From positions 10,654 through 74,653 of the forward strand of contig JBGSPL010000002.1 in the NCBI GenBank assembly GCA_041738615.1: a stretch of DNA of 64,000 nt. Direction: 5' to 3'. Position 1 is the first letter of the stretch. Every line of letters begins with the position of its first letter. Under the pieces are notes generated by a model. It saw only the letters and a program-made list of their open reading frames with translations, made no database searches and was not told the DNA's origin. The stretch is from Patescibacteria group bacterium. GTDB taxonomy: Bacteria > Patescibacteriota > CPR2 > UBA1875 > CAIMLA01. The position numbers were made by a program, and so were the translations under genes. This document shows, one piece after another, positions 5,765 through 22,278 of the stretch.

Positions 5765-6844
5765 ATGCTGATTACAAAGTTACAACTTCAGAATTGGCGT
5801 AACCACGGCAAATTTAGTTTTGAGTTTGACGGGATTACGGTTCTTGTAGGCCCCAATGCTACAGGCAAGACAAACTTCCTAGAGGCGATTTATTACTTGG
5901 CCACAGGCAAGAGTTTTCGGGCTAAGGATGAAAGCCTCATCGGTTGGGATGAGCAATTTTCGCGAATCGAGGCGGATATTCAGAGAGAAGAAGGCTCAGA
6001 AAATCTACTGGTGGTGCTCGAAAATCAAGGGAGAACAGTAAAAACAGTGAAAATCAAAGAGCAAAAGGTGGCCTCGGCGAAGCTTTTGGGGCACCTGGGA
6101 GCCGTCCTTTTTACTCCTGAAGAGATTGAGCTTATTTCCACGCTGCCCGAGGCGCGCAGGCGCTACTTAAATATGATTATTAGCCAATCTGATCGGAAAT
6201 ATTCGTACTCGCTGATTCACTTTCGCCGTACTCTAGAGCAGCGCAATTCTCTCCTCAGGAGGATCTTCAACGGTGAGGCCAAGGAAGACGAGCTCGAGAT
6301 TTGGGATGGGCGGTTTGCTGAGTATAGCGAGCAGATTATTGCCGCGCGAGCTGGCTATGTGTCAGAGATCAACAAACACCTTACTGTACACTACCAAAGA
6401 CTCGCGGGGAATAAGCAGAAGCTGGAGCTTTTGTACATCCCAAGCATTGAGCCTACGCAGGGTTGGGCTGGCATCGTCACTAGGCTTACACAGAGCCGCC
6501 CCAGGGACATTTTGGCCCGAGTTACGACCATCGGCCCGCATCGTGATGATATGGGCTTCACACTCGACGGTAGGAACTTGCTGACTTTTGCCTCGCGCGG
6601 CGAGCTGAGGACTGTGATGTTGGCTCTAAAACTCGCAGAGGTAGATTTTCTGGAAAGCATCATGGGAGAACGCCCGGTGTTGTTACTCGATGACGTATTT
6701 AGTGAGCTCGACGAGAAGCGCCGAGATCTTCTCTCACAGGTATTCACCGAGCAGCAGACAATCATCACCACCACCGACCTAGATCATGTAAGCAAAAACA
6801 TTCTCGATAAAGCAAAGGTGATAAACTTGGGTTATGACAAATAA
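5765..6844 (+). CDS. recF: DNA replication and repair protein RecF
   Basis: Walker A GPNATGKTN, SMC-like signature, C-terminal LLLDDVFSELD. Confidence 0.9.
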   Translation: MLITKLQLQNWRNHGKFSFEFDGITVLVGPNATGKTNFLEAIYYLATGKSFRAKDESLIGWDEQFSRIEADIQREEGSENLLVVLENQGRTVKTVKIKEQKVASAKLLGHLGAVLFTPEEIELISTLPEARRRYLNMIISQSDRKYSYSLIHFRRTLEQRNSLLRRIFNGEAKEDELEIWDGRFAEYSEQIIAARAGYVSEINKHLTVHYQRLAGNKQKLELLYIPSIEPTQGWAGIVTRLTQSRPRDILARVTTIGPHRDDMGFTLDGRNLLTFASRGELRTVMLALKLAEVDFLESIMGERPVLLLDDVFSELDEKRRDLLSQVFTEQQTIITTTDLDHVSKNILDKAKVINLGYDK

Positions 6845-7112
6845 CATTTTCAAAAATAGGTTGGACCAGCTCGGCATCGGCCGGCAAGTGGACGCTGCCG
6901 TTATTGTGGCACGGTCACAAAAGATCATTCATGACCATTTTGGAGCTCATGGTGATAACAATCTACGGGCTGTCTCTTACAGAAACGGCGTTTTAAAGAT
7001 AGCAAGTAGTTCAAGCGCATGGTCAGCGGAATGTCGCGGTGCTTTATTAGAAATACAAAAACCGCCTGTGACCCGAGTGGTATTTACTTTTGCTAACACA
7101 CCAGAGGAGTAG
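6834..7112 (+). CDS. dciA: DUF721/DciA-like protein (putative replicative helicase loader)
   Basis: Small ORF directly after recF, as Rv0004 is in the Mycobacterium dnaA-dnaN-recF-Rv0004 locus. Carries a SSSAWSAE motif typical of DUF721. Confidence 0.55.
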   Translation: MTNNIFKNRLDQLGIGRQVDAAVIVARSQKIIHDHFGAHGDNNLRAVSYRNGVLKIASSSSAWSAECRGALLEIQKPPVTRVVFTFANTPEE

Positions 7113-7460
7113 CTATTCGGTAGTTAGGTCAGGATCGGAGGAGTCGTCATAATCGGGTGCAAAAATAACCGTTACTTCGGTGGTTTGGTCTTTAGAAACC
7201 ACTACTGCTTGAGAAGAAGCGGCTGCATCACTATCTTTTGCCTTTGCGGTTAATCGGTATTCACCCGGCTTAAGGGTAATTTCTTTGGCTGAACTAAGTT
7301 CTTTGTCTTTGCCGTCTATTTGCACGGTTTGGATATCAGTTGGTGATGAAACCTTAATTTTGCCCGTTGGGTTTAAGACAACCCAAATAAACGTACCGAT
7401 AATAATCAGCAGTGTTAGGGAGCTAAAAACAGCTATTTGTATAAGGGTTTTTCTATTCAT
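7113..7460 (-). CDS. Small membrane-anchored hypothetical protein (distal gene of the T4SS locus)
   Basis: N-terminal TM helix, then a soluble Ser/Asp-rich domain. Confidence 0.35.
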   Translation of the reverse strand: MNRKTLIQIAVFSSLTLLIIIGTFIWVVLNPTGKIKVSSPTDIQTVQIDGKDKELSSAKEITLKPGEYRLTAKAKDSDAAASSQAVVVSKDQTTEVTVIFAPDYDDSSDPDLTTE

Positions 7461-10158
7461 CTACATAAACTCCTACATGTATGTGGTTCGTATGTCCAGC
7501 AAGTGTCTGGGCAGAATAGTTGAAGGGTTTTCCGTTCCTTAAATTGTATTTATTTGCACTAACCCCAATCGCTGTATTCTTGTATATTAGTTCATCAATA
7601 CTGAGCTCATCAGCATGTGCATATGCCCAAGGCATTAGGGTTTTAGCCACGCTCTCATCACCTATATCGAAGGCGAGACCAATCCAGTGGAGGGTACCAG
7701 GCTTGTGTCCTGTTTTCATGACGGAAATTTCTAGGGGTCCTTTGTCCTTACTATCCAGGTAGTCTGCCATTTGCAGGGCGGTACGGATTGTTTGGGCTCG
7801 TACCTTACCGTTGGCAACATCACCGTCAATGTCACCTATGCTTTGTTTGGTGATTTTACCGACTTTACGATATTTTTTCCAAGTCTTGCGAAGCTCAGTG
7901 ATATCGCCGTCTAACGCTGCAGGATTATCCCCTGAGTCGTCTGTAGTATCGGTATCTACTTCCTCGGCGCAGTTATTATTTACAGCGGTACCTCCAGCCG
8001 CAGTAGGGTCCTTCCCATCAACGACGCGAACATGGAAGTGGTCATCATGTTGAGATAGTAGAGACATCTTTCCGGGGAGTTTCTTGTCGTCAGCATATTT
8101 ATTAACAGCGGTAACCACGGCTTGGTCGTAATAGAAGATAGTGTCTATAACGCCGGTGTCGATAAAGTCCTTTCCTAGCTCTATGGCGAGAGAGCGTTCG
8201 TAGTTTGAGTTATTTGAGTGACCCGGTAATGACATGAATAATTTACCTCTTGAGTAGATGTCTACGTCTATACCCTTTTTGTGACTTTTGTGTCCGGGTG
8301 CGTTCAGGTCTCCAACTCCAAACTTCTCCTCAGGGTGTTTGCTTGACCAAGTCTGCCCAACGGCAAGAATGGTATTAACTAGAGTTTTGCCTCCCCATTG
8401 CTGTGAAGGAGGTGAACCACCGTTGACGTTACGTTTGTAAAAGCTTGACTTTGGTAGCTGGTAGTAACCACTAGAGTTGGCTTTACCAAGGTCGTTTACA
8501 GTTGCTCCAGATTTTGGAAAGTATATTTCGACCCCGTCTGCTATCGCTATAGCTACTTTCTTTTGGTTTGAAGCGTCACCAATAAAGTCAGCGTCTTTTT
8601 TAACCTTCAAGCTAGCCATCTCGACTAAAGAAGTTGGGATGTTATATGTATAACCGAACCCGGCATTTGAAGGGTGTTCGCGGACTTCGCTTGGGTAAGC
8701 TGACCCGCTTGCATATGTTAACTTCGCAGCATCAAAGGCCTTGTTTAGGGCTTTGGCAAAACCGTTATCTTGTGAGATGGTTGAGTCTTTGCGTCTCGCG
8801 AAGTACTCTCCGTTAGCGCCTTTGGTGTCCCATTTATTCTTGATTACATCTGGGTTTGATCTGTAAAAGACAATGCCATCTTTGGGACCATTGCCGTCAT
8901 TGTGCAGCTTTATGATTGCGGTTGCATTCTTCTGTTTAGCTAACTGCCCTCGATCGTAGTTACTCATAAAGGTGTCAGCATTGTCTTTAGTAAGGATGGC
9001 GTCGTAGCCCCTGCTCTGTAGTTCGGTTTGAAGATAGTTGGCGACCTTTTGGTTAACTTCTCTTTCTGAGACACCATGGCCGGAAGTACCAGAGGTAGCG
9101 CCTGTTTTGCTTCTTAGCCAGTTTGCTAAGTCGTTGGCGTAGTCAGCAATCGAATTAGAACTGTCTAACTCACTTGGGTGTCCAGGATCAATAACTATAA
9201 CACTGCCATTAGCGGCATCTGCGCTTGCCTCGTCGCACTTTGTTGTTGGAAACGCCGCCGCCAGAGTTTGAAACATGAATAGCGTGAGGAAGAAGATAAT
9301 TATAGCGATAACGATAGAGACAACAAGTCCCCAACCACTGCCCAGAAATGCTGCAATACCGACCACAGTTTCAGTTTCAGCTGCTGCAGTTGCTGCTGCT
9401 GCGGCAGCCGTTTCCGCTGCAGCAGCACCCTCGGCGGCTTCTCCTAGCTTTGCGGCTTCGCCTCCGAGCTCTGCAGCCTTGGAGATGCCTGGACCTTCGG
9501 GCTTGGCTGGTCCCCCGGGGCCACCTTCCTTTTGGAATTCGGGGAGGTCGCTCTTTGCATCTGCGTCTTCGCCGATGCCCGGCTCTTCGTCGTCAGCTTG
9601 CTCTGCCTCCTCAGCGCGGTCCATCAGGTCGTTCTTATCGGCGTAGTTCTGCCGAGCGGCAGGGTCGGACGCTAAGTTGTAGCCGTCATCTGACTCCTCG
9701 GGCTTTACCGTCTCGTTGGGGTCGGTACTGCCAGCATCTTCTCCCGTATCTTCATCTTCTCCACCTGGAGCTTCCCCGTTTTCGGCTTCTTTCCCTTCCG
9801 CATCTGGTCTTCTGGTCTTACCGTCAGAGCGGTCTTTGCCTTGGCCGCTACCAAGGGGGTCTATCCAGTTGAAGGCGGGGCCGCCCGCTCCACCACCGAG
9901 ATAGTTTTCTAGTCCTTGCTGCTTCGCCCAGGACTTGTCGTCCATCAGGTCATGAGCAGCCCGATCGTCGGTTCCTGCTCTACGCCTATCCTTGGCACTG
10001 GTAAAACCTTCACGGCGAAGCTGACGTGCGGCCCAATCATGGGCATCATGCCAAACCTTGTCATCCATATGCTTACGAGGTTGGCCAATTAGCTCAGGAT
10101 GCCCCATGCCCCTGAGTCTTTCGTTGAACCAATAATCGTAATTTTTGTTGTTTACCAT
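7453..10158 (-). CDS. T4SS-associated bitopic cell-wall hydrolase: MurNAc-L-Ala amidase domain plus two LAS/M15-type metallopeptidase domains
   Basis: Acidic low-complexity and poly-Ala N-terminus, then a TM helix. An amidase_3-like motif follows (VIVIDPGHP...AIIKLHNDG). Two H-x6-D...H-x-H blocks follow: HKKGIDVDIY...HDDHFHV and TLHWIGLAFDIG...HTNHIHV. Confidence 0.65.
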   Translation of the reverse strand: MVNNKNYDYWFNERLRGMGHPELIGQPRKHMDDKVWHDAHDWAARQLRREGFTSAKDRRRAGTDDRAAHDLMDDKSWAKQQGLENYLGGGAGGPAFNWIDPLGSGQGKDRSDGKTRRPDAEGKEAENGEAPGGEDEDTGEDAGSTDPNETVKPEESDDGYNLASDPAARQNYADKNDLMDRAEEAEQADDEEPGIGEDADAKSDLPEFQKEGGPGGPAKPEGPGISKAAELGGEAAKLGEAAEGAAAAETAAAAAATAAAETETVVGIAAFLGSGWGLVVSIVIAIIIFFLTLFMFQTLAAAFPTTKCDEASADAANGSVIVIDPGHPSELDSSNSIADYANDLANWLRSKTGATSGTSGHGVSEREVNQKVANYLQTELQSRGYDAILTKDNADTFMSNYDRGQLAKQKNATAIIKLHNDGNGPKDGIVFYRSNPDVIKNKWDTKGANGEYFARRKDSTISQDNGFAKALNKAFDAAKLTYASGSAYPSEVREHPSNAGFGYTYNIPTSLVEMASLKVKKDADFIGDASNQKKVAIAIADGVEIYFPKSGATVNDLGKANSSGYYQLPKSSFYKRNVNGGSPPSQQWGGKTLVNTILAVGQTWSSKHPEEKFGVGDLNAPGHKSHKKGIDVDIYSRGKLFMSLPGHSNNSNYERSLAIELGKDFIDTGVIDTIFYYDQAVVTAVNKYADDKKLPGKMSLLSQHDDHFHVRVVDGKDPTAAGGTAVNNNCAEEVDTDTTDDSGDNPAALDGDITELRKTWKKYRKVGKITKQSIGDIDGDVANGKVRAQTIRTALQMADYLDSKDKGPLEISVMKTGHKPGTLHWIGLAFDIGDESVAKTLMPWAYAHADELSIDELIYKNTAIGVSANKYNLRNGKPFNYSAQTLAGHTNHIHVGVYVDE

Positions 10159-10228
10159 ATTCTTATTCCGTTAGGAAAATCGGTTTTATGTAGTTTACTG
10201 TCAGCGTTTATTCTTGCTGTTAAATTAC

Positions 10229-11212
10229 TCACGGTTTTCCTCCGCCGAGCCTTAGAAGTTTACCGACATAGCTGTCTCCGGAAAAATAAACAACCCCACT
10301 ATCGCTTAGCCCAAATAGCTTGTAGTAATCGATATTATTAACCCCATAGTTTATTTGGTATGTTGTGCTGTCCTTAGCTAGATAAATATAGTCTTTCTTG
10401 TATTGTGAATAGATAAAGCAGTTTGCACCCGCGGCGAACTGGTCGGAGGGAGTAATATTAATTTTCGAGGGCGCGTGATTAGCAGGGAAAAGTCTGATTG
10501 AACTACTGTCGGCATATATTAGGCCACCGTTATCAAATATTCTGATGCGGCTTGACTCAGCAAACTTTTGTTCCAGTACCCTTATTGTTTTCAGCTTTTC
10601 ATCATATATCGTGACTTTCCCATTGATGTAATCTGCGAAACTTCCTCCAGCAGTCGAAAGTATGGGGGGATTGCTTGATAATTTAGTGCCAGTCTTTTTC
10701 CACTGGTCTCCTGTATGTTGGTATACGTAGTTAGTGCCCAGGCTTAGTATTTGGCTACCGGTTAGCCACGTGAATCCGGGCGCAGAACCTAAAAATATTG
10801 GGAGGTTGTCACCTAGATTATATGTCGCGTAAACCATTGTAGTTTCGGGGTCCTTGTAGTTACTATATCCCTCCAGTGCGGCTGGATCATTAACAATCTC
10901 TAGCAGCACCTTCTGCTTGTCTGGGTACCAGTATAAGTTAGAAATCTCTCCGTTAATAACTTGCTCGCTAATATCTTTCGCGGTCGTTTCTCCATTATCT
11001 ATCTTAGCGAGTGCAGTGTTGCGGAAAGTCATAAATGAGACATCATTGTCCGAGATATTTATGTGTTCCATCTGACCTTCAAGTGAGGTGAGATCTATCT
11101 CGGACGTTACGGTTTGGAGCGGGGCCGTTTTGGTAGAAACCAGATAAGTCATGATAATAACAACGATAATTAATATGGTACTGATAATTGGAATAATAAT
11201 CTTTTTGTTCAT
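10229..11212 (-). CDS. Membrane-anchored T4SS component (VirB8/TcpC-like by size and position; unverified)
   Basis: Single N-terminal TM plus a ~290 aa beta-rich ectodomain. Its ATGA start/stop overlaps the upstream gene. Confidence 0.3.
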   Translation of the reverse strand: MNKKIIIPIISTILIIVVIIMTYLVSTKTAPLQTVTSEIDLTSLEGQMEHINISDNDVSFMTFRNTALAKIDNGETTAKDISEQVINGEISNLYWYPDKQKVLLEIVNDPAALEGYSNYKDPETTMVYATYNLGDNLPIFLGSAPGFTWLTGSQILSLGTNYVYQHTGDQWKKTGTKLSSNPPILSTAGGSFADYINGKVTIYDEKLKTIRVLEQKFAESSRIRIFDNGGLIYADSSSIRLFPANHAPSKINITPSDQFAAGANCFIYSQYKKDYIYLAKDSTTYQINYGVNNIDYYKLFGLSDSGVVYFSGDSYVGKLLRLGGGKP

Positions 11213-11835
11213 CTGATTACAGTTCCTTCTATCTTGCCCATGACCTTTGACCCGCCATTCAAGCCGCTGCCGCTGTCTAGTTTAAGTTTGTGTTTTTTCC
11301 AGTAGGCTACCATCTCCGGGCAATAATCCACACAGGCAAGGTCAAGTCGGTTCGGTTTGGTTACAGTGGAAGCAAAGTGGTCCCCTACAGGGGTCGCTTC
11401 GCTGTTATTGTAGCCGGGAATAATTATCTTGGCTTGCTTTAGGACTTTTTTGCTATGGATCAGTGGTACAGGAATCTTGTTTATATCAACATGCCCGCCA
11501 GAATGATACTTACTATCTTGGGGGACAGCTATAACACCAGTTGAGACCTTTTTGCCGTTGTACTTACCGATATATCCCGTGGGGCTTGACGAGTTTAGCC
11601 AAACTTTAAGCATAGACCCGCCGCCGTTGTGACCGTTGATACCCCCTTTGCCAGGGTCATAAGTAGTTATCCAAAACTCAACGTCACCGGTAATGGCTGC
11701 AGTATCCGTTTTGTCTTCCACCTCTCCTCCCCCGCCCATTAACCCGACCGTTAGGGCAACGATAAATATTATAAAGACGCTTGAGGCAAAACAGCCCCCC
11801 AGCGTGCAGCCTACCTGTGATTTCCCTCCTGCCAC
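11209..11835 (-). CDS. 3D-domain (MltA/RlpA-like) putative lytic transglycosylase, membrane-anchored
   Basis: N-terminal TM. TTYDPGKGGINGHNGGG...GVIAVPQD...RLDLAC resembles 3D-domain motifs. Weak, by-eye match. Confidence 0.35.
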   Translation of the reverse strand: MAGGKSQVGCTLGGCFASSVFIIFIVALTVGLMGGGGEVEDKTDTAAITGDVEFWITTYDPGKGGINGHNGGGSMLKVWLNSSSPTGYIGKYNGKKVSTGVIAVPQDSKYHSGGHVDINKIPVPLIHSKKVLKQAKIIIPGYNNSEATPVGDHFASTVTKPNRLDLACVDYCPEMVAYWKKHKLKLDSGSGLNGGSKVMGKIEGTVIR

Positions 11836-11838
11836 GTG

Positions 11839-13650
11839 TTATTTTCTCCCGAGTTCGTTCAGCTGTTCTGGGTTTGTGGTAATTAGCAGATCTTCCTGGT
11901 AGCTTGGAGTGACCTTCAGGGCGACATGATTTAGTCCGGCGAAGAAGAGCCCCTCTCCTTTATCTGCGTTCAGAAGAAAGTACTTTTCAGCCGTGGTTAG
12001 ATTGAAGACCCTAGAGATGATATCCGCAGTGGCCGGGTGCTGCTTGAGCAGCAAGGTCAGTGACGAGTTGTTCACAATCGCCCTTCCGTAGCTAGAGCTG
12101 ATAAACTCGTCAACATCCTGGCTGATAGTCGTAAGGCCGAGGTAATATTTACGAGCCCGCTTCGCAATAGAGTAGATAAACTGGGCAGAGTCTTCATATT
12201 TCATCATCAGCCACGCTTCGTCCACGATGAGCATGCGGCGTTTGCGTTCGCTCTTCACGCGGTTCCAGATAAAGTTTAGGATAATGTGCATTGCGATAGG
12301 TCGGAGCTCATCCTCAAGGTCGCGGATAGAAAAGACGATAAACTGATTATCCATCTTGATGTTAGACTGTTGATTGAAGAGCCCCGAGAAGGTACCTGTG
12401 GTGTATTTCTGCATTCTGATAGCCATGGTCTCTCCGCCCTGGATACTGCCAAGAATCTTCTCTAGGTCCCCCATGGTCGGAGGCGTAAGGCCGTGAGTCG
12501 ACGGGTCACTAGTGATACCACGCGAGGCATATGATTCGATAAGCGCACGGTCTAGGATATTGTCTTCTACGGCTGTCAGAGTGCCACCAAGCATGATACG
12601 CACGAGCCCGTGGATAAGTATTACGTTGCTTCGCAAGATGTCTTCACCGTCCTTGGAGCCGCTTGCGGATGTAGGCAAGTCAAATGGGTTTATGCGGTAG
12701 TCGGAGTTCAGGGAGACATTCAGATAACTTCCGGCTACTGATTCGCAGAGCGCCTCGTACTCGTTTTCTGGGTCAATGATGATGACTTCGGTGCCAAACA
12801 TCATAGAGCGCACCGCCTCTAGCTTGATAGCGTAACTTTTACCTGCACCAGACATAGCCAGTACTACCATGTTGGCATTTTCTAGAGTAAAGCGGTCAAA
12901 TAGAACCAAGCTGTTGTTGTGCCTGTTGATGCCGTAGAGCACGCCTTCGTTATTTGAAAGCTCGGAGGAAACAAATGGGAAGCTAGTAGAGAGAGCACCA
13001 GTGTCGAAGTTACGCGAGATATCCATGACATCGTTTCCGAGTGGAAGCCCAGAGTCAAAACAGTCCTCTTGCTGCAGAGTGGCCCTCTTGGTATATACCA
13101 GCATTCCGCCCAGGTTCGTCTCGAGCATGTCGGTAAGCTGGTCCAGCTCCTTCAGCGTTTTTGCATAGAGGTTGATGTATAGAGACATCTTGAAGAACTT
13201 CGATTCGCCGCGTTGCAGTAAATCGCGTAGTTCCTCTACGTCCTGGTAGGCCGTCTGAAGCATAGGATCGCGCACGGCGCCTTTTTCTTGTTGCTCGGAG
13301 TAAGTAGACTGGATTTGTCCTACCTTTGTCCTTAGCTTGTCCATGATCTCCTTATTGTCTATCGGGTAGATAAACATCGAGAGATCGCCTTCGAAGCTTC
13401 CATTGATGATTGGTGAGAGCCACTCGGTATATAGATAGCGAGGATATGTGTAGACAAAGAATGATCGAGCGTAGTAGCCGCCTATTTCTATGTGGTCGAG
13501 CTCCACGTTGATGCTGGAGGGCGCGATGATGTCACGCAGAGTGGCCATACCTTCACGATAGACGCGCTCTGCCTCGAGCTTGCGGGCTTCGTTTGCCTCC
13601 CTGGCCTGCTTTTCCGCTGCAGACTTGGGGTCAAAGATATTATCAAGCAT
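11839..13650 (-). CDS. virB4: VirB4/TraE-family T4SS ATPase, C-terminal ATPase part
   Basis: Walker A LAMSGAGKSY and Walker B MLIVDEAWLM. The likely start is the ATG at 13648-13650 with an AAGGAG SD, overlapping the stop of the upstream ORF. Confidence 0.85.
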   Translation of the reverse strand: MLDNIFDPKSAAEKQAREANEARKLEAERVYREGMATLRDIIAPSSINVELDHIEIGGYYARSFFVYTYPRYLYTEWLSPIINGSFEGDLSMFIYPIDNKEIMDKLRTKVGQIQSTYSEQQEKGAVRDPMLQTAYQDVEELRDLLQRGESKFFKMSLYINLYAKTLKELDQLTDMLETNLGGMLVYTKRATLQQEDCFDSGLPLGNDVMDISRNFDTGALSTSFPFVSSELSNNEGVLYGINRHNNSLVLFDRFTLENANMVVLAMSGAGKSYAIKLEAVRSMMFGTEVIIIDPENEYEALCESVAGSYLNVSLNSDYRINPFDLPTSASGSKDGEDILRSNVILIHGLVRIMLGGTLTAVEDNILDRALIESYASRGITSDPSTHGLTPPTMGDLEKILGSIQGGETMAIRMQKYTTGTFSGLFNQQSNIKMDNQFIVFSIRDLEDELRPIAMHIILNFIWNRVKSERKRRMLIVDEAWLMMKYEDSAQFIYSIAKRARKYYLGLTTISQDVDEFISSSYGRAIVNNSSLTLLLKQHPATADIISRVFNLTTAEKYFLLNADKGEGLFFAGLNHVALKVTPSYQEDLLITTNPEQLNELGRK

Positions 13651-14380
13651 TTTCTTCTCCTTCGGGATTGGCTGGATTTGGACCGATACCACCAGAGATA
13701 ATCTCCGCTTCAGATCCAGAAATGTCAGTGAGTTTCTCAGAGCTAGAAATGTCAGGGTTGTATATGGAGTAGTACAGCTCTATCAGCTCCTCGGTGTTCA
13801 GCGCTGCACATCGAACCCCGATGCCAGTAAGCCCGTTTATAATATGGTCTACGCGTTCTAGGAGCTCCATCTTCTGCGTTCCAAAGTCAACCGTAGCCAC
13901 GCCTTCTTTCCCTGAGAAAAGATTCTTTACTACGTTCACTTTCTCCGTCCCAGTGGGGTAGAAAGGAACCACCAGAAAGAAGCGTTTCTCCATAATGTTG
14001 GAAAACTGGAGAAGTTCAGCGATAAAGTCGATGTACTGAGTGGTTTGCAATTTCAAAAGCTCATTCGTCTGTAGGCTCAGCTGTTTCTCCAGAGAGTTTA
14101 CATAGGCATCTAGGTGAAGCTGTCGTGATTTTACGTATACCTGTATTGGAAAGCCGAGGGAATTCAGGAAGCTCTGGTACGAGGAAACTATCGCGTTCTT
14201 TTCATCATCGCTCTTTAGGGCAAAGTTTACAGAGGAAACCAAAAGTACGGCCCTCAAAGAACCGTTGCGCATCACGACTACACCTTCTTTGATTTCCTTG
14301 ATCGGAATAAATTGCTGAGTAGACGGTGCCTTTACCTTCTTGTTGTACTTTGTGTCAGACATAACCCTCGCTTCGTACAC
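13643..14380 (-). CDS. VirB4 N-terminal domain encoded as a separate ORF
   Basis: FIPIKEIKEGVVVMRNGSLRAVLLVSSVNFALKSDDEKNAIVSSYQSFLNSL matches the N-terminus of Gram-positive VirB4 proteins (Tn916 Orf16/PrgJ type). Ends in low complexity. Confidence 0.65.
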   Translation of the reverse strand: MYEARVMSDTKYNKKVKAPSTQQFIPIKEIKEGVVVMRNGSLRAVLLVSSVNFALKSDDEKNAIVSSYQSFLNSLGFPIQVYVKSRQLHLDAYVNSLEKQLSLQTNELLKLQTTQYIDFIAELLQFSNIMEKRFFLVVPFYPTGTEKVNVVKNLFSGKEGVATVDFGTQKMELLERVDHIINGLTGIGVRCAALNTEELIELYYSIYNPDISSSEKLTDISGSEAEIISGGIGPNPANPEGEENA

Positions 14381-14446
14381 TCATTTTAGCATAACTAATG
14401 AATACGAAGAAACTCTTATTTAGAAGCATCTTTGTGCGGGGTGAGG

Positions 14447-15202
14447 TTACCCCCTGTCAAATTTCTTGACCTTAGCACTATCGAGCTTTTCCTCTAGTAC
14501 TCGCTGGTTTTCTTGAATTTTATTCAGTGTGGATTCTAGCTTCTTTTCGTCTGCGAGCGAGAGCTTCGAGTATTCAAAGTCGTCCTTGTTGGTTTTCTTT
14601 GTTGCTAGCGTACTTACTGGGGTTTCCTTCTTGTTTTTTTCGACATACTCTTTCGCCTGAGAGATGATAGAGTCCATCATCGGAGCGGCTTCCTCGGTTT
14701 TTGCTAGAACGTCCTTGACTGCCTCGGGCTCCTCTACTTCTTTCACTTCTACGTTAGTCTGCCGGTTCACTGTAGAGTCCATCCCTGCGGCACCACCTGA
14801 GTCCACGACCATGGCTAGCCTCTCGAGACCACTCTTGATCTCGTGAATACTTTTCTTTGCAGCCACGGTTTTTCTAGTATGCGGTGTCTCGTCATGGGTG
14901 GGGATTTCGGGATCGTCGTCCTTGCGCCAAATTCGTTCATGGGGCGCAAACAGGGATTTGACACCGGCCATGATAAAGGTCTCAAACGGACGGTCGTTTA
15001 TTTTCACAAAGGCAAATGCGATACCAACGCATGCTGTTACAAGTGCGAATGGGATAAAGAGGAATTGCAAAGGTCCAACGAAGGCATAGAACTCCAGGAG
15101 TCCCACGCCACCAGCGACCATGACGAACATGAACTGTCTGAGCGTAAGCCCGGCAATTACCTTGTCTTCGATGTCTATGTTTTGGGGGACTTTATATTGC
15201 AT
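14447..15202 (-). CDS. PrgI/VirB3-like small membrane protein with a charged C-terminal extension
   Basis: N-terminal IDIEDKVIAGLTLRQFMF plus a two-TM hairpin typifies the PrgI family. Lies directly upstream of VirB4. Confidence 0.5.
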   Translation of the reverse strand: MQYKVPQNIDIEDKVIAGLTLRQFMFVMVAGGVGLLEFYAFVGPLQFLFIPFALVTACVGIAFAFVKINDRPFETFIMAGVKSLFAPHERIWRKDDDPEIPTHDETPHTRKTVAAKKSIHEIKSGLERLAMVVDSGGAAGMDSTVNRQTNVEVKEVEEPEAVKDVLAKTEEAAPMMDSIISQAKEYVEKNKKETPVSTLATKKTNKDDFEYSKLSLADEKKLESTLNKIQENQRVLEEKLDSAKVKKFDRG

Positions 15203-15220
15203 GGAACCTTAATTTCTGAT

Positions 15221-18058
15221 TTATTTCTGTCGTTTCTTTCCTTCCATTATATCCTTGATCTCTGCTACGGTGTCAGGTCTAAAGTTAGTAGCTCCAATCT
15301 CTGGATCTGTGGCGGCTTTGTACAGCTTGGTCATACGAGGAGCACCTTTTTTCTTTATCAGTTCGCTAGCCTGGAGGGGCGAAATATTAGAAGTGAACTC
15401 ATTTGCCAAGCCAGCCATGAGAACGTCTTGATCGCCTCCTGCTATGCTCCTGGTATCTAGCCCCCCATTTTTAATCTGATCGTTTTGGGCATCAACTTGG
15501 CCTCTCAGTTCTTTGGTTATTGGTTTGGCATAGTTTAATAGTCCACCAATTTCTGCCCCAGTAGATGCTGAAAGATCTCCATCTATCATCTTCTTTGCGG
15601 CCTTCCTTCTGAAGTCGGCAGTGACAGAATCGTTTTGACTACCAAAAATAAGTTCCTTGTGACTCTTGATGCCAAGGTTCTTCATGGCGTCACTCTTACC
15701 GATAAACTCATCAAATAGTCCCTGTGCACCCTGCTCGTTACCGTCTTTGTCAAGTACTGTGTTACCACCAAAGCGCTTCAATTCATTGGCATCCATGTCG
15801 AGTAGCCCTCGGCGCATTAGTTCTGTTGCCGCAGCCTCACGCGTATATTGGTCATGCTGTTTTCCTGTAAAAGACATAAGTTTTTCTTTTGAGGTACTTT
15901 CGTCGCCCATACCTGCGGCAGCATGGTGGGCTGCCACAGTTGCTACGTGGAGGTTATTTGCGGCCATTTGCCCTCTATTGCCGGCGACTCCTGTTGTGGC
16001 CCACGTAGAACCCGGGATGTTACTATTCGCGAGCTTATCCTGGAAGCCGAGCAGGTGGGCCTTGTCCTCTGCGGCTTGGTTCGCTCTTCTGTTTTCGAAA
16101 AAGCCCTTACCCTTACCAAGCATACGATTGACGGAGTACTTCCCTCCCACGCGGGTAGCTGCCCAGCCGGCACCTTTCAGGGCATTCCCCCCCGTAGCGC
16201 CCCAGAGTTTCTTGCCTGCGCCACTCCAGGATTTCATAATGCTGCCACCCCATTGCATAGGGAGAGTGGCAGCCATATATAGAGCAGCCGCAAAGATGAT
16301 TAGTCCTACCAAAGCACCCGTTCTGCCGGAAGAGCTGAAATCAGCAAGGGCAGCAGACGAGGTGAGGTCACTTGCTCCTTCATAACCGGCGCTGCTAGCT
16401 ATTAAGCCTCCGAGAGCAATGATTGCCATAGCGATCGGCCCCATGAACATCCACTTGAAGAATTCACTCCACCACTGCTTATACATATTGGCGGTGAATG
16501 GCATGATGTTTAGGATAAAGGCAAGCGGAGCTACTACTAGCAGGAAGCTAAGCATGACCATACGTATCAGAAGAGTAAAGAGTAGTACGATGCCACATGC
16601 GATGACTCCGAGCAGAATCACGATTACCATAATCAGTATGCCAAGGTTTGCTATAATGTCCCCCGTAGAGGGTGCGGATATGCTGAAGGAAGACAAAGTC
16701 CCTAGAATGTCTATGCCCCCAGCGAGACCTACGGCCTGGGCTTGTATCGCAGCGGTAAAGTCAAAAAAAAAGACTACGATAATCCAGCTAGCGTATGCCA
16801 TGACTATAGAAATGATGATACGGGGGATCATACGAGTAACGCCGTACTGCTCTAGGTTAATTTGCAGTACATTGGCAAAGGCAATAATAACGAGTGCCAT
16901 CACTAGCAGGGATAGTGCTACGTTCCTTACGCTGATCCATGGCCCCCGCATAGTTACCTCTTTGGCATTCCCGATATCTGCACCGACCTTGCCAACAACA
17001 AGGTCTGCAGTCCCAAGAAGCAAGGCATTGATTTGTTTCATGACAAACCCCAGGGTCGTTTCGACGCCGCTCATCACCCACTTGATAGCGTTGGAGATAG
17101 CCTTGTCTAGGGGGGAGTCAGTTTCTTGGGAAACAGTTATCCGAAACCCTGTGTACTTTTCGTCGGTATCAGGCAGTTGCTTACCGCCAATTGGAGATTT
17201 TGCCTCAGTGGTATCATTCTTGTCGGAAATTGTTACTTTTGCGTAGCCACCCTTTACGTAACTCAAGTGAAATGTTATTTCCCCAGTCAGAGTTGCAGTA
17301 CAGGAGATTTGGTCAGCTCCTCCACCCTTCATTTCTTTAGAGACGCAGTCGGCATGTTCAGAATATTTAAACTTTATCGTATAGTCGTCCTCGTAGATGC
17401 CTTTACCGCTGTTCATGGTTGGGATATCAAAAGACTGGAAATAGTATTTTCCACCTTCTTCATATACTTTCTTATTGCCAGTCGAGATCTTACCGCTCGT
17501 TTTGCTCCAAAGCTCGATCGTCCTGTCCTTCATTTGGACGGCATTGTTTTCGTTTACGCTGTCGTCAGGGATAAGCTGTCCTGTTATTTTGCCCTTTGTA
17601 ATAAGTTTTACTGGGGCCGACGCAACATCTTCGGGGTCGGAGATGGTAATTTTAACTGGCCTGCCGCCATTGCGATCTGTGTAAGTATAGGTACCGGTCA
17701 AGGGGTCCTCTGGGTCATATGCAATTATGGACCCCCATTGAGGGTTGGTTTTTTGTTCAAACTGCTCCACTAGCTGTTCATTAACATAACCATTTGAGCC
17801 GGCATTTGCCCAACCCTGGCTTAGAGCAGCGAGGCGCGGGCTTGTTATCGACAAAAACTTCGTGCCGCCACTAGGGCAATCAATTTCTTCTAGGCTGACC
17901 CAAACACAAGTAAAGCTTGATGAGCCGTCTGGAATCGCTGGTTCTTGCCCGGTGTTGTAAGTTTGAGCATGAGTAAAAAGCGGAAATACTAACGCAAACA
18001 ACAAAAAAGCACATATTTCTTTATAAAATACTGGCTTATTTGAAAACAACTTAGGCAC
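15221..18058 (-). CDS. VirB6/PrgH/TcpH-like polytopic T4SS channel protein (945 aa)
   Basis: Signal peptide, ~350 aa ectodomain, then 6 or more TM helices and a Gly/Ala-rich cytoplasmic tail. Position matches the Gram-positive T4SS gene order. Confidence 0.55.
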   Translation of the reverse strand: MPKLFSNKPVFYKEICAFLLFALVFPLFTHAQTYNTGQEPAIPDGSSSFTCVWVSLEEIDCPSGGTKFLSITSPRLAALSQGWANAGSNGYVNEQLVEQFEQKTNPQWGSIIAYDPEDPLTGTYTYTDRNGGRPVKITISDPEDVASAPVKLITKGKITGQLIPDDSVNENNAVQMKDRTIELWSKTSGKISTGNKKVYEEGGKYYFQSFDIPTMNSGKGIYEDDYTIKFKYSEHADCVSKEMKGGGADQISCTATLTGEITFHLSYVKGGYAKVTISDKNDTTEAKSPIGGKQLPDTDEKYTGFRITVSQETDSPLDKAISNAIKWVMSGVETTLGFVMKQINALLLGTADLVVGKVGADIGNAKEVTMRGPWISVRNVALSLLVMALVIIAFANVLQINLEQYGVTRMIPRIIISIVMAYASWIIVVFFFDFTAAIQAQAVGLAGGIDILGTLSSFSISAPSTGDIIANLGILIMVIVILLGVIACGIVLLFTLLIRMVMLSFLLVVAPLAFILNIMPFTANMYKQWWSEFFKWMFMGPIAMAIIALGGLIASSAGYEGASDLTSSAALADFSSSGRTGALVGLIIFAAALYMAATLPMQWGGSIMKSWSGAGKKLWGATGGNALKGAGWAATRVGGKYSVNRMLGKGKGFFENRRANQAAEDKAHLLGFQDKLANSNIPGSTWATTGVAGNRGQMAANNLHVATVAAHHAAAGMGDESTSKEKLMSFTGKQHDQYTREAAATELMRRGLLDMDANELKRFGGNTVLDKDGNEQGAQGLFDEFIGKSDAMKNLGIKSHKELIFGSQNDSVTADFRRKAAKKMIDGDLSASTGAEIGGLLNYAKPITKELRGQVDAQNDQIKNGGLDTRSIAGGDQDVLMAGLANEFTSNISPLQASELIKKKGAPRMTKLYKAATDPEIGATNFRPDTVAEIKDIMEGKKRQK

Positions 18059-18120
18059 CCTCCTTTGTTGAATTTATTATGAAGTATTTGATGAGCTCTT
18101 GCAAGGCTCAAAACGCGAAA

Positions 18121-18150
18121 GCGGCCACCACGGGATTCCGTGGTGGCCGC
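18121..18150. terminator. Perfect 13-bp-stem hairpin downstream of the high-GC ORF
   Basis: GCGGCCACCACGG gatt CCGTGGTGGCCGC, followed on the minus strand by a T-rich tract. Confidence 0.55.
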
Positions 18151-18171
18151 TAGGTGATGCCCGCGAAGCTG

Positions 18172-18618
18172 TTACTCGAGTATCTCTACCCATTTACCAT
18201 CGCGCTTTACGAGTGCCGAGATGCCGTGAGTCCCGTCAGCGCCGCTCCACTTGTAGACAGCCGTCGGTTCGTTGTCGACGGTGACGGTAATGCAGCGGAC
18301 CATGTCATCGGCGACCTGCTCGGCGAAACCGCCGGTGTAGAAGAAGTCCTGGATGTCGGTATCGGTCGCAGGGCGGAATTCCACGATTTCTGCGGTTGTG
18401 AATTCATGGATCTTCTGCCGTGCAAAAGGCTCGGCTTCTCGCAACAAAGCCTGCCTGTCGAGGGACTTCTTCGCCTCAGCGGCTTTGTTAGCACCAGCCT
18501 CGATTGCCTGGTTTGCCGTTTCTCCCGCTGGCTTCACGACTTCCTTGTAAAGGTAGGTCCCGAAGCCAAGTATGACGACTATGCCCACGAGGTAGACGAA
18601 CCACTTCGGGATCGCCAT
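18172..18618 (-). CDS. Hypothetical TM-anchored protein encoded in a ~60% GC islet inside the T4SS locus
   Basis: Probable start MAIPKWFVYLVGIVVILGF (TM helix) followed by a soluble domain. The plus-strand ORF 18154..18708 is judged a high-GC antisense artefact. Confidence 0.4.
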   Translation of the reverse strand: MAIPKWFVYLVGIVVILGFGTYLYKEVVKPAGETANQAIEAGANKAAEAKKSLDRQALLREAEPFARQKIHEFTTAEIVEFRPATDTDIQDFFYTGGFAEQVADDMVRCITVTVDNEPTAVYKWSGADGTHGISALVKRDGKWVEILE

Positions 18619-18837
18619 GGTTCCTCTGTGCTGGCTACCCGCAGGGCTTCCGTTCAAGTCGACCATGACAGCCTCCCTTGGTTTTGGCCCCCGCGGGGGC
18701 GGTGCTAGCGGACAATATACTTCCACGGCTACACATTTGTGAGCGCGTTGTTGCCTTGCTTGCCGCTATAATACAACAAAATTGGCGATATGGCAATGGT
18801 TTCTGTGAAGCCGGCAAACAAATTGATAAAATGAAAA

Positions 18838-18857
18838 AGCCGGCGAGCGCCGGCTTT
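18838..18857. terminator. Hairpin terminator after pilin gene 1 (minus) / bidirectional
   Basis: AAGCCGGC gagc GCCGGCTT, with TTTTTCATTTT on the minus strand. Confidence 0.55.
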
Positions 18858-18873
18858 AAAAGAGCAGAAGTGT

Positions 18874-19227
18874 TTAGTTAGTGATTACGCCACCTATGTT
18901 CTGGCGGATAAATCCAACGATGACGAACGATAGTAGGATCACTACAAGCCCGACGACTGCGTAAAGGATGGTACTCTTTGCGGCTTCGGCACGCTTCTCG
19001 TTGCCTGACGCAGTGATGTACTGTAGGCCGCCTACAATCAGGAAGAGCACAGCTACTACAGCCGAGAATCCTAGTACCCATCCGACGATGTCAGCAAGTA
19101 CCTTCCCGATAGTCAGTGAGCTGTCGTCCACTGTTATGGGAGTGATTGAGCTTGGTGTTTCTGCAAAGGCAGGGGTTGCTGCGAGTAGAGCGAAAGCAGC
19201 CAGGCTGATTTGATTTAGTTTTTTCAT
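18874..19227 (-). CDS. VirB2/TrbC-like T4SS pilin paralog 1
   Basis: Signal peptide plus two TM helices with a conserved GGLQYITASGNEKRAEAAKSTILYAVVGL core shared by all five paralogs. Confidence 0.7.
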   Translation of the reverse strand: MKKLNQISLAAFALLAATPAFAETPSSITPITVDDSSLTIGKVLADIVGWVLGFSAVVAVLFLIVGGLQYITASGNEKRAEAAKSTILYAVVGLVVILLSFVIVGFIRQNIGGVITN

Positions 19228-19255
19228 GTTTCCTCCGTTGTTTATATATTAACTT

Positions 19256-19642
19256 TTAGGACGCTTTTGTTATTGGTATCATGGCTTGAACTACTAGCTG
19301 CACTATCACATATGCTAGTAGTATTACTATAAGTCCCAGCACTGCGTAGGTCAAGGTTTGCTTGGCAGATTCTGCCTGCTTCTCGTTTCCTGCTGCTGTG
19401 ATGTACTGGATGCCGCCCCAAATGATGAAAAGAACTGCAATGGTTCCAGCAAATCCTAGTATCCAGGTTGTAATGTTGCTGATTATTTTGGCAAGGTCGG
19501 ACGTAGTTCCAGTCCCATCTGAGCCACAGGGTGTGATCTCACCGGTTACCCTGTTATACCCACATGCCGCCTGTGTTACTACTGGAGTAAGTGAAGTGAC
19601 ACCCCCGAGGGCAAGTAGCGACAATTTAGAGTTTAGTGACAT
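19256..19642 (-). CDS. VirB2/TrbC-like pilin paralog 2
   Basis: Core GGIQYITAAGNEKQAESAKQTLTYAVLGL. Confidence 0.7.
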   Translation of the reverse strand: MSLNSKLSLLALGGVTSLTPVVTQAACGYNRVTGEITPCGSDGTGTTSDLAKIISNITTWILGFAGTIAVLFIIWGGIQYITAAGNEKQAESAKQTLTYAVLGLIVILLAYVIVQLVVQAMIPITKAS

Positions 19643-19662
19643 GGTTTGTACCTCCTTATTGT

Positions 19663-20007
19663 TTAGTATGGCATCGAGCCGGAGAATACTGCACCAACAA
19701 AATCCCCAGCTATAATGTTTAATATTACGGTTGATAGTAGAACTGCAATTAATCCAATAATAGCATAAGTGAGGGTTTTTTTTGCATCCTCTAAACGTTT
19801 GGGGTTACCGGCAGAAGTCACTAGCTTCACGCCACCAATAACGATAAAGAGCACCGCTATAGCGCCGGCGATTCCCAGCAGCCAGGTACGAACAAATTTT
19901 AGAAATCCATCTAGGCTAGTGCCTTTGTATGTGTCTAGTTTGGCCGCGAAAGAGTAGCTGGGCATGGCTGCAACCGCAATATATAGCATTAGACTTAGCT
20001 TCTTCAT
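19663..20007 (-). CDS. VirB2/TrbC-like pilin paralog 3
   Basis: Core GGVKLVTSAGNPKRLEDAKKTLTYAIIGL. Confidence 0.7.
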   Translation of the reverse strand: MKKLSLMLYIAVAAMPSYSFAAKLDTYKGTSLDGFLKFVRTWLLGIAGAIAVLFIVIGGVKLVTSAGNPKRLEDAKKTLTYAIIGLIAVLLSTVILNIIAGDFVGAVFSGSMPY

Positions 20008-21182
20008 TATAATATCCCTCCACCAATTACCGATGCAAACAGTGAGACGATGAAGTACGAGAGGATAGTGATGAGTAATCCGATAATAGCTGCAGTTAGT
20101 ATCCCCTTTGCCTTGGTCGCCGTCTGTTCGTTTCCGTTAGATCCCATATAGGTAATCCCGCCCAAGATTATCATGATTGTGAATAGTGTTCCTACGATGG
20201 GTAGGAGGACATTATTCATAACATTCTTCACTACCTGTAATACCTCTTTCAGCTCTGTAATAGGTTTGTCGCAGGGTACGCCTGCCAGTATACCGTTGGT
20301 ATAGTAGGTTCCATCGCCTACGCCATCGCCGCACTTGGTCTCTGCATAGTCTGCAGTTTGCGTTTTTGCAGTAGCACTAGCAGAGGCCGGTCCGGAGTCG
20401 TCTTTGGGTGTGGCACCGCTACTACCGCCACTGTCACCACCATCACCACTGTCATCTTTGCCCGCATCAAGAACCTCACTGTCTTTTGGAGGAGTGTCGC
20501 CCTTTTTGCAGGATACTAGCTCTGGATTACTGAGGGTTCCAGTGTATTTGCAGCTATAGGTCGCACCAATGTCGGTGGACTTGGGGTCCCAAGCATAGTT
20601 TGAGTTAGAAAGACTTCTTCCCAGTAAAAGTGAACTTCCAGATGAAGGATTTACCCTATAAACCGTGGTCCCGGTGGAGGAATACTTCTCTAGCTTACCT
20701 TTGACTGGTCCCTTAACCTCTGGGATTGGGCAGACTGCGCAAGTACCCCCTCCCGATTTACTCCAGCTGTACACAACAAGATATCGTAAGCTCAGCTTGA
20801 AGGTTGGATTGCCACAGATAGTCTGATTAGTATATTGTTTTTGGCCTGTAGTACGAGCGTTGCCACCCAAGGACCCATTGGCTTCATAGGTAATCGTCCA
20901 TCCCACATCATTGATCTCAGGACTGTTACAGCGGTAGATTTTTTTTGTAAAGATAAAATACGACCCCTCTGTACGAGAATATATCGCACCATAGGATACG
21001 TTGCTCTTCGTTATCTTTACGACAACGTCACTTGAATTGTAACTATTTACAGGCACTTTAACAGTAACAGTGGTTTGTGTCATGACGGCGGCATTGCTTG
21101 AGCTTGGAGCCAAAATAAAACAAAACGCAATTGCAAAGTACAGCAAGATACGGTTTAGTTTTGCGTACTTTAATTCACCCAT
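20007..21182 (-). CDS. Pilin-fusion protein: ~300 aa Cys-containing beta-rich N-terminal domain, Gly/Ser/Asp linker, C-terminal VirB2-like pilin module
   Basis: C-terminus GGITYMGSNGNEQTATKAKGILTAAIIGL matches the pilin core. The N-terminal domain has a signal peptide and several Cys. Confidence 0.6.
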   Translation of the reverse strand: MGELKYAKLNRILLYFAIAFCFILAPSSSNAAVMTQTTVTVKVPVNSYNSSDVVVKITKSNVSYGAIYSRTEGSYFIFTKKIYRCNSPEINDVGWTITYEANGSLGGNARTTGQKQYTNQTICGNPTFKLSLRYLVVYSWSKSGGGTCAVCPIPEVKGPVKGKLEKYSSTGTTVYRVNPSSGSSLLLGRSLSNSNYAWDPKSTDIGATYSCKYTGTLSNPELVSCKKGDTPPKDSEVLDAGKDDSGDGGDSGGSSGATPKDDSGPASASATAKTQTADYAETKCGDGVGDGTYYTNGILAGVPCDKPITELKEVLQVVKNVMNNVLLPIVGTLFTIMIILGGITYMGSNGNEQTATKAKGILTAAIIGLLITILSYFIVSLFASVIGGGIL

Positions 21183-21547
21183 GGTACCCCCACCACATAT
21201 TGTAAAAAGAATCTACCGAGAACTATGACCGCTACTCCCGAAAGGGCTCCAAACATCAACTTCTTCGAAAGCTCTATCTGCTTACTATTACCCGCACTGC
21301 CCATATATATAATACCGGCCGCAATGAGAACTACGGTAGCGAGGAGCAAGATGGCGGTCTGTGACCAGCTAAAAACTTTTGCGATGTAGGCTGTAAGAGC
21401 CTCGTTGTCATCGGGTTTAAGGCTCTTGAAAAGTCTGAATTCTACAGTTTCTGCGAATGCGAAGTGAGGAGACAGGAGAAGAAGCAACCCGCAGGTTGTG
21501 CTGGCAAGCTTTGTGCATCTGAGTGTGGCCAGGAGTTTTCTAACCAT
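21170..21547 (-). CDS. VirB2/TrbC-like pilin paralog 5
   Basis: Core AGIIYMGSAGNSKQIELSKKLMFGALSGV. Confidence 0.6.
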   Translation of the reverse strand: MVRKLLATLRCTKLASTTCGLLLLLSPHFAFAETVEFRLFKSLKPDDNEALTAYIAKVFSWSQTAILLLATVVLIAAGIIYMGSAGNSKQIELSKKLMFGALSGVAVIVLGRFFLQYVVGVPWVN

Positions 21548-22019: not shown

Positions 22020-22133
22020 TATGTCCCCTCCCTTAGTGTATTTGTTAAATCTATTGTGCCACGGGTAAATAATAATAGCAATAGGCAAAATATCCGTAAA
22101 AGCCAACTTTTGAGCACGAATTAGTTCAAAACT

Positions 22134-22220: not shown

Positions 22221-22278
22221 ATTATTAGACATTTACATTATCTGGGTATACTATAGTAGCAAGCTTGGGAGGGTGTTT

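Follow-up and report, generated by a model that had tools for sequence, protein, structure and literature searches.

A gene cluster for a type IV secretion system (T4SS) was identified in a 64-kb window (the whole stretch of DNA analyzed, 64,000 nucleotides [nt] of contig JBGSPL010000002.1 from a Patescibacteria group bacterium). The cluster comprises 14 open reading frames (ORFs), all on the minus strand, that run from position 21547 down to 7113. Neighboring ORFs overlap or lie at most 70 nt apart, except for gaps of 147 to 255 nt before g06 and of 113 nt before g07. An initial annotation, made from the DNA alone, had described a contiguous minus-strand locus at 7113-21547, and the ORFs were indeed found at these coordinates on a single strand. 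The core of the machine is encoded by the following genes.

11839..13692, minus strand: VirB4 ATPase of the Gram-positive CD1110 type, 617 amino acids (aa) (NF045971 conju_CD1110, 371 bits, cut-off 325)
13643..14380, minus strand: TrsD-like protein, a stand-alone VirB4 N-terminal domain, 245 aa (NF045975, 47.3 bits)
14447..15202, minus strand: PrgI/VirB3-like protein, 251 aa (PF12666, 49.5 bits, cut-off 27, residues 4-91)
15221..18058, minus strand: VirB6-like polytopic membrane protein, 945 aa (topology, weak family and structural matches)

VirB4 covered positions 171-733 of the 752 positions of the NF045971 profile of NCBIfam, matched the TraG P-loop family with 101.8 bits, and matched Protein Data Bank (PDB) entry 4AG5, the VirB4 of the Gram-positive Thermoanaerobacter, at E=1e-46. 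Its Walker A (MSGAGKS) and Walker B (LIVDEAW) motifs are intact. Judged by its sequence, the protein is a VirB4 ATPase of MPF-FATA ancestry, and the Gram-positive type assigned initially agrees with the passing of the CD1110 model. The TrsD-like ORF matched positions 90-233 of NF045975 (E=6e-13), positions 1-78 of the CD1110 profile and, weakly, the TrsD model NF041427 (26 bits). Its likely start is ATG 14362, and that of VirB4 is ATG 13650, which overlaps the trsD stop codon (13645-13643) and has a GGAG a few bases upstream. This ATG/TGA overlap together with the GGAG is the usual signature of translational coupling. The PrgI/VirB3-like protein, which had been named as such before and was recognized with a score well above its cut-off, has a charged C-terminal extension.

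To place these proteins among their relatives, VirB4 homologs were ranked from a one-genome-per-species collection and the best 80 loci (L001-L080) were considered; the peptide-pattern search used may bias this ranking. With the N-domain and the ATPase of VirB4 in two overlapping frames, the cluster could be taken for a decaying, nonfunctional remnant with a frameshift-broken VirB4, and the initial annotation had called VirB4 split. This explanation is in practice refuted. The TrsD-like ORF is separate and directly upstream of virB4 in seven relatives (L001-L005, L053, and the Kazan genome L049), at times with a short gap instead of the overlap, and the pair persists down to 54% VirB4 identity (Kazan-group genome). 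Furthermore, a survey of 3,035 genomes by Quinonero-Coronel et al. 2025 (PMC12102498) reports 1,664 cases of TrsD adjoining virB4, which makes it the rule in the Patescibacteria clade. Because the two-gene form is kept in seven loci, and because both parts are 96 to 98% identical to L001 although synonymous sites are saturated, TrsD plus VirB4 is an old, functional arrangement and not decay. Of the earlier description, the two ORFs thus stand, as a conserved TrsD-like gene plus a virB4 gene, and the word split does not.

In the 945-aa protein, a signal peptide and a beta-rich ectodomain precede five to six transmembrane (TM) helices (373-603), and some 340 aa of helical tail follow on the cytoplasmic side; this topology fits an extended VirB6. 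TrbL (PF04610) weakly matched 12 of its 22 homologs (best E=4.9e-4), and a profile of the family (22 sequences) found nothing among the PDB sequences. An AlphaFold2 (AF2) model was of moderate quality (predicted local distance difference test [pLDDT] 62), and its highest-probability Foldseek matches were the R388 TrwI/VirB6 chains (7o3v_J, probability 0.92, target-normalized TM-score 0.52). The protein is therefore referred to as VirB6-like, an assignment that is likely and not proven.

Upstream of these genes lies an array of pilin genes, which is followed by the small gene g06.

21170..21547, minus strand: pilin 1, VirB2/TrbC-like, 125 aa, first of the array (PF18895, 20.5 bits, below the cut-off)
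20007..21182, minus strand: pilin fusion of 391 aa (PF18895, 31.3 bits, residues 324-382)
19663..20007, minus strand: pilin 3, 114 aa (PF18895, 55.7 bits; TrbC PF04956, 28.9 bits)
19256..19642, minus strand: pilin 4, 128 aa (PF18895, 56.3 bits)
18874..19227, minus strand: pilin 5, 117 aa (PF18895, 46.8 bits; TrbC, 29.8 bits)
18836..18857, minus strand: strong terminator-like hairpin 3' of the pilin array (9-bp stem, 6 GC pairs, T-rich tail)
18796-18768, minus strand: promoter-like site (TTGCCA-17-TATTAT, a match to the consensus only)
18172..18726, minus strand: small membrane-anchored protein g06, 148 to 184 aa depending on the start chosen (one TM segment, 35-64)

The count of five pilins given initially was borne out: four scored above the cut-off of PF18895 (T4SS_pilin, 26.6 bits), and the fifth, pilin 1, aligns with them. 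The alignment revealed a signal peptide, a first TM segment, a GGxxYxxxxGNxK loop and a second TM segment in all five, so that divergent pilins of the VirB2 type are encoded in an array close to virB4. The other pilins are 24 to 28% identical to pilin 1, which itself shares 72% with its ortholog in L001. The 391-aa protein consists of a signal peptide, a variable extracellular region of ~290 aa and a C-terminal VirB2-like pilin hairpin (TM segments 6-34, 321-348, and 356-391), and is a candidate tip or minor pilin. Pilin 5 is 97% identical to its counterpart in L001 and is also the best-conserved pilin in L002, L003, and L005; because it is the most conserved pilin, its sequence makes it a candidate for the major subunit. 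The nearest named NCBIfam family of pilin 1 was a pilin-like protein of a Mycoplasma integrative and conjugative element (ICE), Mbov_0395, with a weak 17.5 bits, and that of the TrsD-like protein was the Mycoplasma ICE Mbov_0397 VirB4 (47 bits). For g06, the Pfam and NCBIfam searches returned no family match, and only the protein itself was recovered from 5.8 billion proteins. A relative was found in L002 (41% identity over 86 aa), and g06 is hence a fast-evolving orphan.

Downstream of virB4, four membrane-anchored envelope proteins are encoded.

11209..11835, minus strand: 208-aa membrane-anchored protein (g11) with a rare DPBB-like beta-barrel domain (AF2 model and Foldseek)
10229..11212, minus strand: 327-aa membrane-anchored protein (g12) of unknown fold, in a variable slot (TM segment 1-32)
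7453..10158, minus strand: 901-aa modular peptidoglycan hydrolase (Amidase_3, 85.4 bits, residues 321-544)
7113..7460, minus strand: 115-aa membrane-anchored beta-rich protein (g14), last gene of the cluster (TM segment 3-35)

The 901-aa protein confirmed the cell-wall hydrolase of the initial annotation. It is composed of an acidic cytoplasmic N-terminal region, a TM segment (264-305), the Amidase_3 domain (AmiA 8c2o, E=1.6e-6), and two LAS/M15-type metallopeptidase-like domains, with a Peptidase_M74-like stretch at 586-638 (25.7 bits) and, each in two copies, the LAS/M15 peptidase motifs SxHxxGxxxD and HxH. We take this membrane-anchored multidomain wall hydrolase to be comparable in logic to PrgK, TraG, and CwlT. 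The 208-aa protein had no match in Pfam, NCBIfam, or the PDB sequences, with either the single sequence or a profile; PDB matches to an O-methyltransferase (E=0.008) and to Fab and toxin chains were dismissed as chance-level. A profile search of 1.84 billion representative proteins yielded a family of eight members, in the distant ones of which the domain is fused to NlpC/P60 or GDSL hydrolases, and these fusions therefore place the family among cell-wall enzymes. Its AF2 model was confident (pLDDT 81) and gave a weak Foldseek list (E 0.05-5) of mostly DPBB folds (5ntb, 4avr, MltA, LtgG, YuiC), of which MltA, LtgG, and YuiC are 3D-domain lytic transglycosylases. As modeled, the protein is a probable cell-wall glycosidase or lytic transglycosylase. 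The 3D domain proposed earlier is thus a reasonable, unproven guess: the modeled fold is DPBB-like only, and a 3D domain was not detected by any hidden Markov model (HMM). No family match in Pfam or NCBIfam was obtained for the 327-aa protein, at the position of which L001 carries an unrelated 133-aa protein, and the 115-aa protein had sub-threshold Pfam matches only.

The cluster ends next to a block of replication genes on the plus strand.

3008-4378, plus strand: dnaA (Pfam match)
4633-5748, plus strand: dnaN (Pfam match)
5765-6844, plus strand: recF (Pfam match)
6834-7112, plus strand: small DciA/DUF721-like gene (Pfam match)

The yidC and jag genes lie upstream of dnaA on the minus strand. 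The distance between the end of dnaA (4378) and the T4SS cluster is 2.7 kb, which substantiates the closeness to dnaA described initially. Perfect DnaA boxes were detected (2907-2915 and 4381-4389), and the minimum of the cumulative GC skew was located at ~2-4 kb of the window, which probably places the replication origin next to dnaA. If so, the whole 14-kb T4SS cluster is transcribed head-on to the replication fork, including the presumably highly expressed pilin genes. The G+C content of the cluster equals that of the remaining window.

The best VirB4 matches were five uncultured Candidatus Saccharibacteria metagenome-assembled genomes (MAGs), with 98, 92, 82, 76, and 73% identity, followed by many Patescibacteria at ~52-58%. 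All of the best 80 relatives were Patescibacteria MAGs, in agreement with a Patescibacteria clade, although this is a ranking and not a tree. Among these 80 loci, VirB4 identity falls from 73% directly to ~56%, and the next-best loci were mostly Gracilibacteria, Peregrinibacteria, and Peribacteria, not other Saccharibacteria (L053 at 55%). The gene order around the cluster is conserved: L001 and L002 retain the whole frame of hsp20, pilins, VirB6-like, PrgI, TrsD, and VirB4 genes, the DciA-like gene, recF, dnaN, and dnaA, and L003 and L004 retain it for the part covered by their shorter contigs. The frame dnaA-dnaN-recF...virB4-trsD-prgI-virB6-pilins-hsp20 is thus kept over a range of 76 to 98% VirB4 identity.

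The similarity of the machinery to Gram-positive conjugation systems raises the question of whether the cluster belongs to a conjugative element, either one with relaxase, coupling protein, and integrase genes outside the window or a recently immobilized ICE. Every ORF of at least 300 aa in the 64-kb window was inspected; all fall into housekeeping or envelope families, and no MOB relaxase, VirD4/TcpA coupling protein, or integrase was present among them. The only FtsK-family protein (48568-50691) was ruled out as a coupling protein, as its domains (4TM, alpha, motor, and gamma) are those of a complete chromosomal FtsK. Direct or attachment (att)-like repeats bracketing the locus were not found, nor was there a compositional break in the window, and the tRNA genes (the nearest at 27189) are at least 5.6 kb away with housekeeping genes between. 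The absence of relaxase, VirD4, integrase, and flanking repeats from the window that had been reported initially was thereby reproduced. A mobile element would gain some plausibility from the limited view of 64 kb and from the survey, according to which VirD4 homologs often occur at other sites of Patescibacteria genomes and relaxases are encoded in 103 genomes (PMC12102498). However, the housekeeping frame from recF to hsp20 is conserved in relatives and in a cultivated saccharibacterium (see below), and VirB4 changes less than DnaA. We therefore consider a conjugative element very unlikely. The conserved frame, the uniform G+C content, and the VirB4 substitution rate below that of DnaA are also in line with the core-genome status proposed initially.

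The cultivated relative is Candidatus Southlakia epibionticum ML1, in which Wang et al. 2023 described a T4SS (SEML1_0006-0019) right after dnaA-dnaN-recF (PMC10633639). Transposon sequencing scored SEML1_0005-0011 and 0013-0019 as essential, a relaxase and a coupling protein were not recognized in the cluster, and the system resembles Gram-positive conjugative systems, yet has essential pilins (PMC10633639). Compared by annotation table, not by sequence alignment, the two loci share the position after dnaA-dnaN-recF and the succession of hydrolases, VirB4 (~612 aa), a small TrsD-like gene upstream of it, PrgI, a large VirB6-like protein, a small protein, the pilin array, hsp20, and comF. In this comparison, which had been proposed as a check of synteny with Saccharibacteria T4SS loci, the order matches SEML1_0001-0021. 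By position only, g06 corresponds to the NTF2-like SEML1_0012 and the 115-aa protein to SEML1_0005, a PEGA-domain exported protein. There are also differences. S. epibionticum has six pilins on the opposite strand, whereas all five pilins here are on the strand of the machine; it has two VirB6-like genes (0011, 0013) instead of one; its hydrolases are lysozyme-like, in contrast to the amidase/LAS and DPBB-like ones found here; and the pilin with a 290-aa N-terminal extension is particular to the present locus. The strand of the S. epibionticum pilin array is, by contrast with the head-on orientation above, co-directional.

To evaluate constraint, the number of nonsynonymous substitutions per nonsynonymous site (dN) was calculated against L001 only; dN/dS ratios were dropped, with synonymous divergence (dS) saturated or undefined.

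VirB4: dN 0.010
Pilin 5: dN 0.020
DnaA: dN 0.023
TrsD: dN 0.026
DnaN: dN 0.029
PrgI: dN 0.047 (92% identity)
Pilins 1, 3, and 4: dN 0.155-0.197
Hydrolase anchor (N-terminal 324 aa): dN 0.185
VirB6-like, whole protein: dN 0.26

VirB4 is thus at least as constrained as DnaA, and the values of VirB4 and TrsD, set against that of DnaA, indicate that the machine is under strong purifying selection. Other parts of the locus have no DNA homology to L001.

7042-9248: catalytic part of the hydrolase and g14
10161-11744: g12 and the g11 domain
17109-18671: VirB6 ectodomain and g06
20446-21169: N-terminal part of the long pilin, the 391-aa fusion

The hydrolase illustrates this pattern. Its N-terminal 324 aa, which comprise the acidic cytoplasmic region and the membrane helix, are 75% identical to L001, whereas the catalytic part has been exchanged, as seen in the domains present in the window and its relatives.

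Window: Amidase_3 and two LAS domains
L001: M23 and LAS
L002: M15_4 and NlpC/P60
L003: CHAP
L004: CHAP

The slot of four genes from virB4 to the recF-side genes (L001, 11828-15242; L002, 11828-15873; L003, 11815-14438; L004, 2717-5709) is different in every relative examined as regards the number of genes, their length, and their domains, and in L004 the last position of the slot is occupied by an Ig-like (Big_5) protein. Taken together, the hydrolase catalytic domains, the 208-aa slot protein, the VirB6 ectodomain, g06, and four of the five pilins are replaced or fast-diverging between relatives. The locus therefore combines a rigid ATPase core with exchangeable wall-degrading and surface parts, which is a modest addition to a known system; a catalytic-domain exchange in the hydrolase genes was not found described in the accessible part of the survey (PMC12102498). 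The contrast between a frozen engine and exchangeable parts suggests, but does not demonstrate, that the swapped parts face the host. That these modules act on the wall or surface of the host, and not on the bacterium's own wall, and thereby set the host range, is a tentative proposal that we regard as rather doubtful. If it is true, the hydrolase domain set would predict the cell-wall chemotype parasitized by a given saccharibacterium.

The same divergence bears on what the machine does. It might mainly build an adhesive VirB2-type pilus for attachment to the host and translocate nothing. This is rated an unlikely explanation of the locus, and the weight between a purely adhesive pilus and transport of proteins or other molecules at the host contact is about even. 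Adhesin-like rapid divergence of four pilins, the 391-aa fusion, and the VirB6 ectodomain would be expected of a pilus of this kind, the array of five pilin genes has a terminator to itself and hence probably high expression of its own, and the locus contains neither a coupling protein nor a recognizable substrate gene. On the other hand, a full translocon (VirB3, VirB4, VirB6-like) is kept under strong constraint, and adhesion to the host is already served by type IV pili in Saccharibacteria (PMC12857230). A pilB gene (24637-26256) is present here as well. Its product is a PilB-type assembly ATPase of type IV pili (T2SSE, 378 bits), and the gene stands alone, 3 kb from the T4SS; other pilus genes were not recognized among its neighbors.

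Comparison with known systems points to the Gram-positive MPF-FATA T4SSs (CTn2 CD1110, pCF10 Prg/Pcf, pIP501 Tra, pGO1 Trs, ICEBs1), with which the locus shares a CD1110-type VirB4, PrgI, a TrsD-like protein, and the absence of an outer-membrane core. Unlike in these conjugative systems, relaxase, coupling protein, oriT-associated genes, and adhesin are absent from the window, and the locus occupies a fixed, non-mobile place in the chromosome. VirB2-like pilins are present here and lacking in Gram-positive MPF-FATA systems (PMC12102498); given the weak match of pilin 1 to a Mycoplasma ICE protein, such pilins may not be wholly absent from monoderm systems of this type. In the survey, the Patescibacteria VirB4 clade is monophyletic and nested in MPF-FATA, VirB3 is of the PrgI type, VirB2 arrays have 2 to 11 genes with ~25% identity between paralogs, relaxases number only 109, and the T4SS is often near dnaA and dnaN (PMC12102498). 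The present locus shares the FATA-related VirB4, TrsD, PrgI-type VirB3, VirB2 array, and dnaA proximity, and differs in nothing categorical. Tandem divergent VirB2 paralogs also occur in the effector T4SSs of Bartonella and Anaplasma, where the same source reads them as host-exposed surface variation (PMC12102498). However, these belong to the MPF-T systems of diderms, which include VirB7, VirB9, VirB10, and a coupling protein, and beyond VirB4 there is no homology between the machines.

A VirB4-family ATPase without a relaxase, with a pilus or pilin involved, is likewise a feature of archaeal Ced and Helicobacter ComB, and the cluster could correspondingly be a DNA-uptake machine that supplies host nucleotides or genes. 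A comF-like gene (22963-23619) is located two genes past the locus, comF (SEML1_0021) also neighbors the S. epibionticum cluster (PMC10633639), T4SS loci of the class ABY1 carry comF, recG, and radA (PMC12102498), and VirB4 is weakly similar to CedB (41.7 bits). This CedB score is far below the cut-off of 700, as is that for CedD (18.3 versus 600), whereas the conjugative CD1110 model passes; a CedA-like gene was not recognized in the locus. Moreover, S. epibionticum requires comEC for competence and survives deletion of this gene, whereas it cannot do without the T4SS (PMC12857230); SEML1_0021 is non-essential as well (PMC10633639). DNA uptake is accordingly an unlikely function.

We conclude that the locus is very probably a chromosomal non-conjugative T4SS typical of Saccharibacteria and other Patescibacteria, derived from Gram-positive (MPF-FATA) conjugation machinery. 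All features that could be tested in the window agree with the secretion or host-interaction machine, as opposed to a conjugative element, that was suggested initially. The gene identities, their order and conservation, the constraint on the ATPase core, and the absence of mobile genes in the 64 kb were observed here; the pilus, the substrate, and its direction are what we infer from them. Both the identity and the interpretation of such loci have been published, and the locus is a correct rediscovery and not a new kind of system.

In the mechanism that we propose, MPF-FATA conjugation machinery would have been taken over as a core envelope machine. VirB4 and its separate, translationally coupled TrsD-like N-domain would dock on PrgI/VirB3 and the VirB6-like protein at the cytoplasmic membrane, membrane-anchored peptidoglycan hydrolases from the downstream genes would open the cell wall, and a VirB2-type pilus would be built of a single conserved pilin as the major subunit (18874-19227) together with the four divergent ones. 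Channel and pilus may then move macromolecules at the site of contact between host and bacterium, most likely as protein export or as a conduit to or from the host rather than as conjugative DNA transfer. A 2025 review considers the T4SSs of Patescibacteria essential, the first family shown to be so for its own carrier bacterium, and speculates that channel and pilus form an epibiont-host conduit (PMC12857230). By analogy with the homologous cluster of S. epibionticum, the machine would be needed for epibiotic growth (PMC10633639).

Several points weigh against this conclusion. The VirB6-like assignment made initially is backed by the weak family-level TrbL matches and the structural likeness to TrwI, but the 945-aa protein had no direct HMM match in Pfam or NCBIfam, and Foldseek gave zero matches at E≤1e-3; of the VirB4, PrgI, and VirB6 models proposed as a check, the first two matched the proteins of the locus, and the third matched, weakly, some homologs of the 945-aa protein only. 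A VirB8-like component was not identified in the locus. The placement in Saccharibacteria rests on synteny and on the labels of related MAGs, not on a marker-gene phylogeny. With the view limited to 64 kb, a relaxase or VirD4-like gene elsewhere in the genome is possible, and in the survey most Patescibacteria genomes have VirD4-like genes, usually far from virB4 (PMC12102498). Finally, substrate and transport direction are unknown for every member of the family (PMC12857230).

The T4SS family has a central part in the host-dependent life of ultrasmall epibiotic bacteria. The present locus confirms that the architecture of the family and its location next to the replication origin extend to a further, uncultured lineage of Saccharibacteria. 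The comparative value of the locus is that the near-frozen ATPase core, set against swapped wall-degrading and surface modules, points to candidate host-specificity genes.

Other observations concern the neighborhood of the cluster. Three copies of a palindrome with the core ATGCGGCCGCAT (22110-22156, 22185-22231, and 22844-22890), located upstream of hsp20, flank a gene for a PaaX-like regulator with a Cas2-like middle domain (22159-22839); judged by sequence, they look like candidate operator sites for this regulator. A heliorhodopsin gene (29221-29982; PF18761, 293 bits) adjoins genes for rubrerythrin and desulfoferrodoxin (28120-28701 and 28711-29157), a combination that hints at a light-exposed, oxygen-stressed habitat of this reduced bacterium. 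At 60366-62705, genes for a Peptidase_C39-like protein, a radical-SAM enzyme, and a DUF1648 membrane protein stand in a row beside lexA-recA-recX and may form a small cluster for peptide maturation or export.

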